This document shows, one piece after another, positions 28,656-30,219 of a stretch of DNA of 64,000 nucleotides. The DNA is taken from IMG/VR virus record IMGVR_UViG_3300034019_000950, positions 1-64,000 of that record. One strand, given 5' to 3'. A model generated the notes under the pieces. It did not search any database. It saw nothing but the letters and a program-made list of their open reading frames with translations, and was not told where the DNA came from. The stretch comes from a virus. Every line of letters begins with the position of its first letter. The stretch's first letter is position 1. The position numbers were made by a program, and so were the translations under genes.

Positions 28656-29179
28656 AGACCGTGCTTTACGTCGTCGGAGCGCCCGGTGTAGGTAAAAGCA
28701 CTGCGCTCACCGGACTACTCGACAAGTGGGCCACCGCGCTTGTTCAGTCCCCAAAGTGGACATTGAGTGCGCCGATTGCTCTCGTTGGTCACTACGTAAA
28801 GGGCGGCCATGATGGCGGCGACACCGTTCCCTACGACGGTGCGGCAGAGTGCTTGACGTACATGCGCGATGTTCTGTTGCAAGATCACCGCCTGCATGGC
28901 TTTGTGCTGGATGGTGACCGCTTTACAACCTCTACCTGCCGTCAGTTCACTGACGGCCTACCTGGCATCCGTGTTGTGTGTGTTCATCTACAAGCCAGTG
29001 ACGCAACACTCACAGCCAGACGGACAGCCAGGGGCAGCACGCAGAACCCAACATGGATGCTCGGCCGCAACACGAAGGCGGCACGGTTTGCTGACAGCTT
29101 CCCCGACGCGGTACGGCTGCAGACTGATGAAATGAGGCCGGATGAAGTCACCCAGGCAATACGGGAACTGTTGCGGTGA
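28652..29179 (+). CDS. P-loop nucleotide/DNA kinase of base-modification loci
   Basis: GAPGVGKST, GGD, DGDRF, RGSTQNPTWMLGRNTK. Confidence 0.75.
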   Translation: MKTVLYVVGAPGVGKSTALTGLLDKWATALVQSPKWTLSAPIALVGHYVKGGHDGGDTVPYDGAAECLTYMRDVLLQDHRLHGFVLDGDRFTTSTCRQFTDGLPGIRVVCVHLQASDATLTARRTARGSTQNPTWMLGRNTKAARFADSFPDAVRLQTDEMRPDEVTQAIRELLR

Positions 29180-30219
29180 GCGCATCGCCAGTCGCACTTG
29201 CAGAGCCAGATCTTGCGAAAGTGAAAGCTTTGCTTCTGGACACGGCATCACCCGTACACGGTGATCCATCGTGTGTAGTGGTGTTGTTGTCTGCGAGCCG
29301 TAGTGGAAGCAGCACGGTGCATGACCTGCTGGCCCGGTGCGATGCCGTCGCGGCCTTGCCAGGAGAGATTGAGCCATACCTGCGATTGACTGGTAACGCG
29401 CAAGGCGTAGATGGAAGTAACGAGGTCACTTCCTTCACAAACATCGAAGAACTGCGCGCGCTTGTCCGCACGGATCTGCGCCTATGGTCGCAACCTCTAC
29501 CGCTGGTTCATGGTTCTGATTGGCATCAGCGTCGCCTGTTGTTTCAGTCTCCTATGGGCTTGGAGCTGGACGAAGGCTGGTATGACGGTTGCAGCAGACC
29601 GCCCGCTTCCAATCTCACGGTCTTGGAAGAGCCGCCACTGGTTCCAATAGCAGATGCGGTGAAGCCGGGTAGCCTAAACGGCGTCAAACTCATACTCAAA
29701 ACACCACAACTCGTCTATCGACGTGGGCTGGTGGAGGCGCTGTTTCCAAACAGTCCGGTTCACTACCTACACCTAAGACGCAGCGCGCCGGGGACTGTCA
29801 ACGGACTGCTTGATGGGTGGCTTGGTCCACACTTTTGGTCATATCGACTACCAGCGCCTGATGGGGCGGCGATGCCTGACTGGTGGTGCTTTGATGTGCC
29901 GCCAGGATGGCACGCGACACGAGGACTGCTTGATGCCTGTGTGCTGCAATGGGTTGCCGCCAACACGGCTGCGCTTCTGCACCCGCTGGTGGGGCATCTC
30001 CACTACGAGGACTTGTGGAGGCCGCAAGCAGAGCAACGAATAGCAGCCGCTTGTGGGATTGCCGTTGAGGCACGGCTACGTACAGTGATGGCGACAGAAC
30101 AGCCGGCTGAAAGACGCTGGGCAACCAAGCGGCCAGAACTTGCAGGCTTGATGGAGAGGAATGACGTTACACAGCTCATGGAGCAGCTGGGTTACGTGAA
30201 TGGAGGTGTCCAGTGGTAG
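29176..30219 (+). CDS. PAPS-dependent sulfotransferase
   Basis: SRSGSS 5'-PSB loop, LKTP, HLRR, PPGW, YEDL. Confidence 0.75.
   Translation: MSASPVALAEPDLAKVKALLLDTASPVHGDPSCVVVLLSASRSGSSTVHDLLARCDAVAALPGEIEPYLRLTGNAQGVDGSNEVTSFTNIEELRALVRTDLRLWSQPLPLVHGSDWHQRRLLFQSPMGLELDEGWYDGCSRPPASNLTVLEEPPLVPIADAVKPGSLNGVKLILKTPQLVYRRGLVEALFPNSPVHYLHLRRSAPGTVNGLLDGWLGPHFWSYRLPAPDGAAMPDWWCFDVPPGWHATRGLLDACVLQWVAANTAALLHPLVGHLHYEDLWRPQAEQRIAAACGIAVEARLRTVMATEQPAERRWATKRPELAGLMERNDVTQLMEQLGYVNGGVQW

Follow-up and report, generated by a model that had tools for sequence, protein, structure and literature searches.

What would a sulfotransferase do in a phage operon for the hypermodification of thymidine? The question is raised by a virus in the IMG/VR collection (record IMGVR_UViG_3300034019_000950), of which positions 1 to 64,000 were analysed and are referred to here as the window; the record as a whole has 79,355 bp and 64% G+C, and is rated complete. 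At positions 29176-30219, on the plus strand, the window holds an uninterrupted open reading frame (ORF) for a protein of 347 amino acids that is predicted to be a sulfotransferase, and it is followed by the gene for a guanidino-group hydrolase. The two genes form a two-gene module that is found nearly throughout the sulfotransferase family, and the hydrolase in it can have either of two unrelated folds. The best explanation, to which we assign a probability of roughly 0.45, is that the two enzymes together tailor or prepare an arginine-derived adduct in thymidine hypermodification.

A two-gene module in phages and bacteria

The gene was followed through 155 loci including the window, with 17 loci from IMG/VR, 57 from metagenomes and, out of 242 matches in GTDB genomes, the best 80. 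All ORFs of these loci were searched with hidden Markov models (HMMs) made from the neighbouring genes, and the removal of near-duplicates left 122 distinct family members, to which the counts of distinct loci given below refer. A guanidino-group hydrolase is encoded nearby in 112 of the 122, usually with a stop-start overlap between the genes. The partner is a pentein in 33 of these cases and an arginase-family protein in 79. Among the ten members that have no partner, at least six are on contigs cut near the gene, and L148, L151 and L153 are divergent partial matches.

The family profile of the pentein partners comes closest to bacterial DDAH (3rhy, E 7e-30) and to ADI (E 1e-22), and the Cys/His/acidic catalytic set is invariant. 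The profile of the arginase-like partners comes closest to bacterial arginases (4e-19) and N-omega-hydroxy-L-arginine amidinohydrolase (1e-14), and PF00491 is matched at E about 1e-20 by the partners in L055, L033 and L052, with L003 providing another example. The two folds are interchanged even inside phage loci that encode an amino acid:DNA transferase (ADDT), as the partners in L003 and L013/L133 are of the arginase type. Partners of both kinds resemble enzymes of free arginine-type substrates, which fits the ADDT gene located downstream in the window. A separate observation concerns L033, a genome from the candidate phyla radiation (CPR), where a gene for an MntP manganese efflux pump (L033:10120-10653) comes directly after the arginase-like gene, whose family is Mn-dependent; this may be a coincidence.

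The predicted sulfotransferase and its cofactor site

The ORF begins with GTG, and the motifs named in the initial annotation of this DNA (SRSGSS, LKTP, PPGW and TVNGL) can all be located in its product, with SASRSGSS at residues 39-46, LKTP at 173-177, TVNGL at 207-211 and PPGW at 242-245. The public gene call for the same protein, P0002, has 300 amino acids and starts 47 codons downstream, omitting positions 29176-29316 of the window. The long form is taken to be correct, and P0002 too short, because homologues keep the N-terminal part. The start of P0002 drops the conserved SRSGSS loop, and automatic annotation therefore hides the sulfotransferase signature; the cellular relatives that were looked up are annotated "hypothetical protein".

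Thirteen relatives were found in a protein collection clustered at 90%, five of them at 51-66% identity, and the full-length ones span the entire protein including its N-terminus; in a 50% library, 459 cluster representatives match. An alignment of 53 relatives gives E64, E151, K175, R202, N209, G210, L211, G214, W215, W237 and W315 as fully invariant, while S41, R42, G44 and S45 are conserved in at least 90%, and R314 is conserved as in active sulfotransferases. As judged from this alignment, conservation of the motifs is far above chance. The landmarks are the 5'-phosphosulfate-binding (PSB) loop (S41-S45), EEPP (150-154) and WWCFDVPPGW (236-245), and SRSGSS, EEPP, KTPxxxYR, R-x6-NGLxDGW and WWxFDxPPxW together appear to be the signature of an uncharacterised subfamily. 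Its specific invariants are mainly acidic or aromatic (E66, D137, E151, D213, D240, E278, W215, W236/237, W245 and W259), and such residues would suit a cationic acceptor, either an amine or a guanidinium group.

Single-sequence searches with the ORF product returned no PHROG or NCBIfam match, and a hit to TnsC in a phmmer search of the PDB was dismissed as a chance match. The relatives are more telling, as 47 of the 53 match Sulfotransfer_3 (PF13469) with E values up to 0.01, the best being 1.6e-13. The family profile, compared with solved structures, finds the sulfotransferase (ST) domains CurM-ST (4gbm, 6e-11) and OLS-ST (4gox, 7e-11), and TPST at 5e-3. An AlphaFold 2 (AF2) model of the product (pLDDT 87.4, pTM 0.89) has Stf9 (Z 13.8), CurM-ST (13.1), TPST1 (12.7), Stf1 (12.5) and OLS-ST (12.5) as structural matches. 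All 50 of the best structural matches in this VIA comparison are sulfotransferases, aligned over 200-250 residues, and the top Foldseek matches are likewise sulfotransferases. The model thus confirms, as a prediction, a sulfotransferase fold of the Sulfotransfer_3 type.

The residues that bind the cofactor 3'-phosphoadenosine-5'-phosphosulfate (PAPS) can be traced with one change. SRSGSS (41-46) aligns to PRSGST of CurM, OLS and TPST and to ERSGSN of the canonical sulfotransferases that neighbour some family members, K175 aligns to the Lys in VDKSP of CurM, and R202 aligns to the Arg that contacts the 3'-phosphate. In canonical Sulfotransfer_3 proteins (LVRDPRDVAVSS) a Ser stands eight residues beyond this Arg; here that position is Gly210, preceded by Asn209, and the CurM and TPST alignments agree in placing Gly210 at the Ser. 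The suspicion in the initial annotation that the Ser of the 3'-phosphate-binding (3'-PB) site had been replaced was therefore correct, as Asn209-Gly210 is invariant across the family, and the canonical sulfotransferases adjoining family members in L083 and L078 retain the Ser. Asn209 could stand in for it. E64 is invariant and lies 22 residues beyond R42, and the printed CurM alignment ends two residues before it. What we take to be the Glu proposed as catalytic base of CurM-ST comes 21 residues past the loop Arg of that enzyme, just beyond its aligned SPP stretch. Taking these residues together, PAPS-dependent sulfotransfer is a likely activity, as far as prediction goes.

The modification operon

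The reading frame is part of a run of six plus-strand genes joined by overlaps. The first (27022..27762) encodes a ParB_N protein (PF02195, E 4e-07; phrog_620, E 8e-38), which is likely a regulator or partner of the thymine dioxygenase that follows. The latter is a TET/JBP 2-oxoglutarate-Fe dioxygenase (27762..28655; PF12851, E 8e-25, 87 bits) predicted to convert T to 5-hydroxymethyluracil (5hmU); its ATG at 27762 shares a frame with a listed TTG at 27750. Next is a P-loop kinase (28652..29179) with the Walker A motif GAPGVGKS, a match to AAA_33 at 29.4 bits and one to Ploopntkinase3 at 26.4 bits, the cut-off of the latter being 27 bits. Its homologues align from the GTG at 28652, and we consider it a candidate 5-hmdU DNA kinase. 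Among solved proteins it comes nearest to guanylate and adenylate kinases, with E values above 0.01. That it might instead be an APS (adenosine-5'-phosphosulfate) kinase supplying PAPS was considered and rejected, as it has no PF01583 match and the comparison with APS kinase gives E 0.74.

The gene for the sulfotransferase-fold protein (29176..30219), assigned by structure, family profile and conserved cofactor-type residues, is followed by that for the pentein, a DDAH/ADI-like guanidino-group hydrolase (30213..31046; PF02274, E 8e-07) in which Cys268, His178 and acidic residues are invariant. Last comes the gene for the ADDT, an aGPT-Pplase-like amino acid:DNA transferase (31043..31999), which matches PF18724 (E 1.6e-17, 64.4 bits against a cut-off of 26.2) and PF18746 (E 1.3e-06). 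The overlaps are TGATG between ParB and TET/JBP, GTGA between TET/JBP and the kinase (GTG at 28652), GTGA between the kinase stop and the sulfotransferase start (29176-29179), the 7 nt GTGGTAG between the sulfotransferase stop and the pentein start, with a Shine-Dalgarno GGAGGT upstream, and ATGA between pentein and ADDT (ATG at 31043). These stop-start overlaps bear out the coupling to the kinase upstream and the pentein downstream that had been noted for the gene, and the ParB, TET/JBP, kinase and ADDT domains around it agree with its placement in a DNA-modification operon. No promoter-like sites were found within the operon, and terminator-like sites are no commoner there than in shuffled sequence. 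The domain assignments support, at the level of sequence, a pathway of post-replicative thymidine hypermodification.

Four architectures of related loci

The family occurs in four kinds of gene neighbourhood. The first (a) comprises 13 distinct phage loci of the ADDT type. ParB together with TET/JBP is found in the window and in L001, which is fully syntenic with the window. L003 carries HMUDK_hel, the HMUDK kinase, the sulfotransferase, ADDT and the arginase-like gene, and both HMUDK_HMUD1 and HMUDK_hel are unambiguous and adjoin its sulfotransferase; L010, L111, L113 and L145 also match the HMM of the HMUDK-type kinase (Walker A GTNGSGKS and variants). On the 188-kb viral contig of L016, a few kb from its ADDT-sulfotransferase-pentein cluster, there is a homologue of adenylosuccinate synthetase (L016:2736-3809; PF00709, E 1.5e-53), which could be PurZ-like and would then point to a 2-aminoadenine pathway.

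The second kind (b) comprises 13 distinct viral loci of low G+C and of a thymidylate-synthase (TS) type, in which a P-loop kinase, the sulfotransferase and a pentein are encoded along with an APH-like kinase and two TS-like paralogues, one of them so divergent that only jackhmmer picked it up. The 323-amino-acid protein encoded after the pentein was tried as a hidden ADDT and rejected, as jackhmmer links it to thymidylate-synthase-like proteins. These clusters (e.g., L002:6286-12607 and L014:4547-11679) also bear a guanylate-kinase-like gene, and they may represent another route to a related base. Both kinds together provide about 26 distinct phage loci with the sulfotransferase-hydrolase pair, in every case within clusters for pyrimidine-C5 modification, and a kinase of the P-loop or HMUDK type accompanies the sulfotransferase in nearly every one of them.

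The third kind (c) is cellular and is the largest, with 77 distinct loci, mainly in Oxalobacteraceae, Comamonadaceae/Sphaerotilaceae and CPR bacteria. Here a PrmA/MTS-like N-methyltransferase gene (NLPF motif) stands with the sulfotransferase-like and arginase-like genes, and the neighbours are often SsuA/NMT1-like binding proteins and two-component kinases. In about 77 cellular loci no ADDT, 5-hmU kinase, TET/JBP or thymidylate-synthase-like gene was detected by HMM. The methyltransferase gene and its sulfotransferase-like and arginase-like companions form a triad in 73 distinct members (e.g., L055:7225-9994, L033:7313-10033 and L068:7204-9976), mostly from Oxalobacteraceae, but also from Comamonadaceae, CPR bacteria and one Woesearchaeota metagenome-assembled genome (MAG). 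The methyltransferase of the triad is basic, hybrid histidine kinases are often found nearby, and all members that were looked up are annotated as hypothetical.

The fourth kind (d) is again cellular but small, made up of Sorangium and several MAGs, and combines the sulfotransferase-like gene and a pentein gene with a canonical Sulfotransfer_3 gene. A canonical Sulfotransfer_3 gene belongs to the operon in five cellular loci (L083:3647-8539, L078:6169-8702, L097, L142 and L086), being immediately upstream in four of the five and after the pentein in L086; the operon of L083 goes on to a gene for a sulfite-oxidase-like molybdoenzyme. Such neighbours give these cellular relatives a sulfur-related setting, which speaks for the proposed role of the family. 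A quick maximum-likelihood tree unites the arginase-coupled cellular members in a monophyletic clade (support 100) nested among pentein-coupled sequences, and joins the window to L001, both having long branches.

Proposed pathway and alternatives

An arginine-derived compound on the C5-methylene of uracil is proposed because the guanidino-hydrolase module has an amino acid:DNA transferase directly downstream. The pathway would begin with the oxidation of T to 5hmU by ParB and TET/JBP and continue with the phosphorylation of 5hmU by the P-loop kinase. ADDT would then swap the phosphate for an amino-acid nucleophile, for which arginine or a compound derived from it is the most likely candidate, and the pentein could turn the guanidino group of this compound into a ureido group or into an amine. 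The sulfotransferase may put a sulfo group on the side chain, giving an N-sulfamate or a sulfate ester, and its substrate would be the adduct already bound to DNA or the free donor ahead of transfer. In this scheme we infer that PAPS is the donor, that the acceptor derives from arginine, that the steps run in the order given and that the sulfate is retained in DNA. Sulfation of the final adduct, one of two roles suggested in the initial annotation, is possible. For the full consequence, that virion DNA of the phage and of some of its ~25 uncultivated relatives holds an arginine-derived thymidine adduct bearing a sulfo group (as N-sulfamate or sulfate ester), the prospects are rather doubtful.

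A number of observations weigh against tailoring of an arginine-derived adduct. The products of the two partner types differ, as arginase leads to ornithine and DDAH or ADI to citrulline, and no ADDT is detectable by HMM in the 13 phage loci of the thymidylate-synthase type. The activity, the donor and the acceptor of the sulfotransferase are predictions. The ORF product by itself matches Sulfotransfer_3 at 14.6 bits (E 0.04), below the cut-off of 27 bits, the replacement of Ser by Asn-Gly is family-wide, so that binding of PAPS is not assured, and no APS kinase is encoded in the 79,355-bp phage record. The product is acidic (pI 5.8, net charge -7), as are most of its relatives; its acidity is a weak hint against extensive contact with DNA and slightly favours a substrate that is small or flipped out, and direct action on DNA is not indicated. 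Known thymidine hypermodifications mostly add positive charge, and an anionic sulfated base would be atypical among them.

The second role suggested in the initial annotation was the formation of 5-sulfooxymethyl-U, in which the sulfate on 5hmU in DNA would replace the phosphate as the leaving group for ADDT. The gene does immediately follow that of the kinase and precede that of the transferase, sulfate leaves readily, and the best sequence matches are activating sulfotransferases of the CurM type. However, the claim fares badly against the wider family. Nearly all phage loci already have a kinase, including the bona fide HMUDK with HMUDK_hel in L003, and therefore no gap exists for a sulfate leaving group to fill. 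The invariant residues outside the cofactor site, putatively on the acceptor side, are the same in the roughly 77 cellular loci with no detected 5hmU machinery, so 5hmU-DNA is unlikely as the acceptor. The constant partner is the guanidino hydrolase and not the 5hmU machinery, and the protein is acidic. Sulfation of 5hmU is thus very improbable. The same cellular loci, with no DNA-modification genes detected, favour a different view, in which the module makes a free nucleophile for ADDT and the final base is free of sulfur, the sulfate either departing as a leaving or activating group, in the manner of CurM-type sulfotransferases, or never reaching DNA. The acidity of both sulfotransferase and pentein, the likeness of the partners to enzymes of free arginine derivatives, and the activating CurM-ST and OLS-ST as the best sequence matches with solved structures would all be in keeping with donor preparation of this kind. 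Yet the likeness to CurM-ST is mostly one of general cofactor motifs, no candidate enzyme is evident that would use a sulfate leaving group, and Lee et al. are said to have found in 2021 that the characterised tailoring steps in thymidine hypermodification act on the DNA-bound adduct. We regard a sulfur-free product as unlikely.

It is also conceivable that the protein has the fold of a sulfotransferase and does not use PAPS, with another donor (APS), another kind of transfer or a non-catalytic function, its PSB site perhaps holding a phosphorylated or sulfated intermediate. The invariant Asn209-Gly210 and the single-sequence Pfam score under threshold would be accounted for, and an activated substrate might be handed over by the kinase upstream in phages or by the canonical sulfotransferase in four of the five cellular loci that have one. 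Against this, the PSB loop, Lys175, Arg202, Arg314 and Glu64 are conserved as in active sulfotransferases, and 47 of the 53 relatives match PF13469. APS kinase is present in four of five tested genomes that carry the module, one of them a CPR genome of 1.4 Mb, a weak argument since control genomes mostly have one too. Abandonment of PAPS is accordingly a distinctly unlikely reading. Still less probable is an auxiliary module that happens to be co-located and whose target is a metabolite of the host, a molecule used in signalling or some part of the virion. It draws on the cellular members, which adjoin SsuA/NMT1-like binding proteins and two-component kinases rather than DNA enzymes, and on the fact that gene context is what links the module to DNA. 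Against it, both genes lie between kinase and ADDT with stop-start overlaps, and in phages the pair keeps to pyrimidine-C5 modification clusters throughout its about 26 distinct loci.

Comparison with characterised enzymes and pathways

CurM-ST and OLS-ST (4gbm and 4gox) resemble the protein studied here in their PRSGS-type loop, in the Lys, in the 3'-PB Arg and probably in a Glu some 21-22 residues past the loop Arg. They are domains of polyketide synthase (PKS) modules that sulfate a beta-hydroxyacyl group on an acyl carrier protein (ACP), after which the sulfate leaves, whereas here the protein of 347 amino acids is free-standing; no PKS, ACP or thioesterase (TE) gene was present among the operon genes scanned (22.5-32 kb). 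They also keep the 3'-PB Ser, in contrast to the Asn-Gly found here along with the family's own EEPP and WWCFDxPPxW motifs and its guanidino-hydrolase partner. TPST1/2 and the mycobacterial Stf1 and Stf9 have the same fold (Z 12-14), with PSB loop and 3'-PB Arg arranged alike, at only 12-18% identity, but their acceptors (peptide Tyr and glycolipids) are unrelated to any gene around the sulfotransferase of the window.

An analogy, and only that, is offered by the NDST enzyme of heparan sulfate, in which hydrolysis first exposes an amine for N-sulfonation by a PAPS sulfotransferase. The sulfotransferase domain of NDST matches the AF2 model at Z 10-11. NDST removes an acetyl group; here the removal of a guanidino group is proposed, two separate proteins are involved and N-sulfation is conjectural. 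SulN, the monobactam N-sulfotransferase, provides a similar analogy.

The tailoring enzymes described so far in thymidine hypermodification are, to our knowledge, PLP decarboxylases, radical-SAM enzymes, oxidoreductases, acetyltransferases and GATases. The passages of PMC8989533 and PMC13458397 on the hypermodification pathways of ViI, M6, PaMx11, SP10, PhiW-14 and SH-Ab 15599 describe a logic shared with the window, from 5hmU through a kinase and an amino-acid or amine:DNA transferase to tailoring enzymes. Clusters with a ParB-dependent thymine dioxygenase have been described (PMC13229309), and according to the passages concerned ParB and TET/JBP are the source of 5hmU in that class, as is proposed here. 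Neither a sulfotransferase nor a guanidino-group enzyme is found in the passages searched of PMC13229309 and PMC8989533.

Implications

No homologues were found in 50,697 GenBank phage records with three divergent family members as queries, and the DNA of the operon has no match among GenBank phage records. A literature search retrieved no paper that pairs a sulfotransferase with aGPT-Pplase or 5hmU hypermodification, and none on clusters of sulfotransferase and arginase genes. The initial annotation had held that a DNA-acting sulfotransferase would be a new activity; no literature was found that places a sulfotransferase in these pathways. What is new here is probably the tailoring chemistry, brought by a sulfotransferase and guanidino-hydrolase module into an otherwise known kind of thymidine hypermodification.

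From the presence of the pair in about 26 phage clusters, one or more undescribed bases can be predicted, which may be anionic or zwitterionic and may contain sulfur, and the signature of a sulfated base, roughly +80 Da, could pass for that of a phosphate. Were the proposal true, it would give the first example of a DNA nucleobase sulfated by an enzyme, and bacteria would be using the same unrecognised module, with an N-methyltransferase, for an arginine-derived metabolite. Thymidine hypermodifications shield phage DNA from restriction and yield enzymes for DNA labelling. The analysis also defines a widespread, unannotated bacterial module, with the phage context giving a handle on its chemistry.

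One further feature of the window lies at 24725-26441, between the primase-helicase and the modification operon, where a serine recombinase (Resolvase, E 1e-35) is encoded together with an overlapping ORF of 399 amino acids that has no family match.

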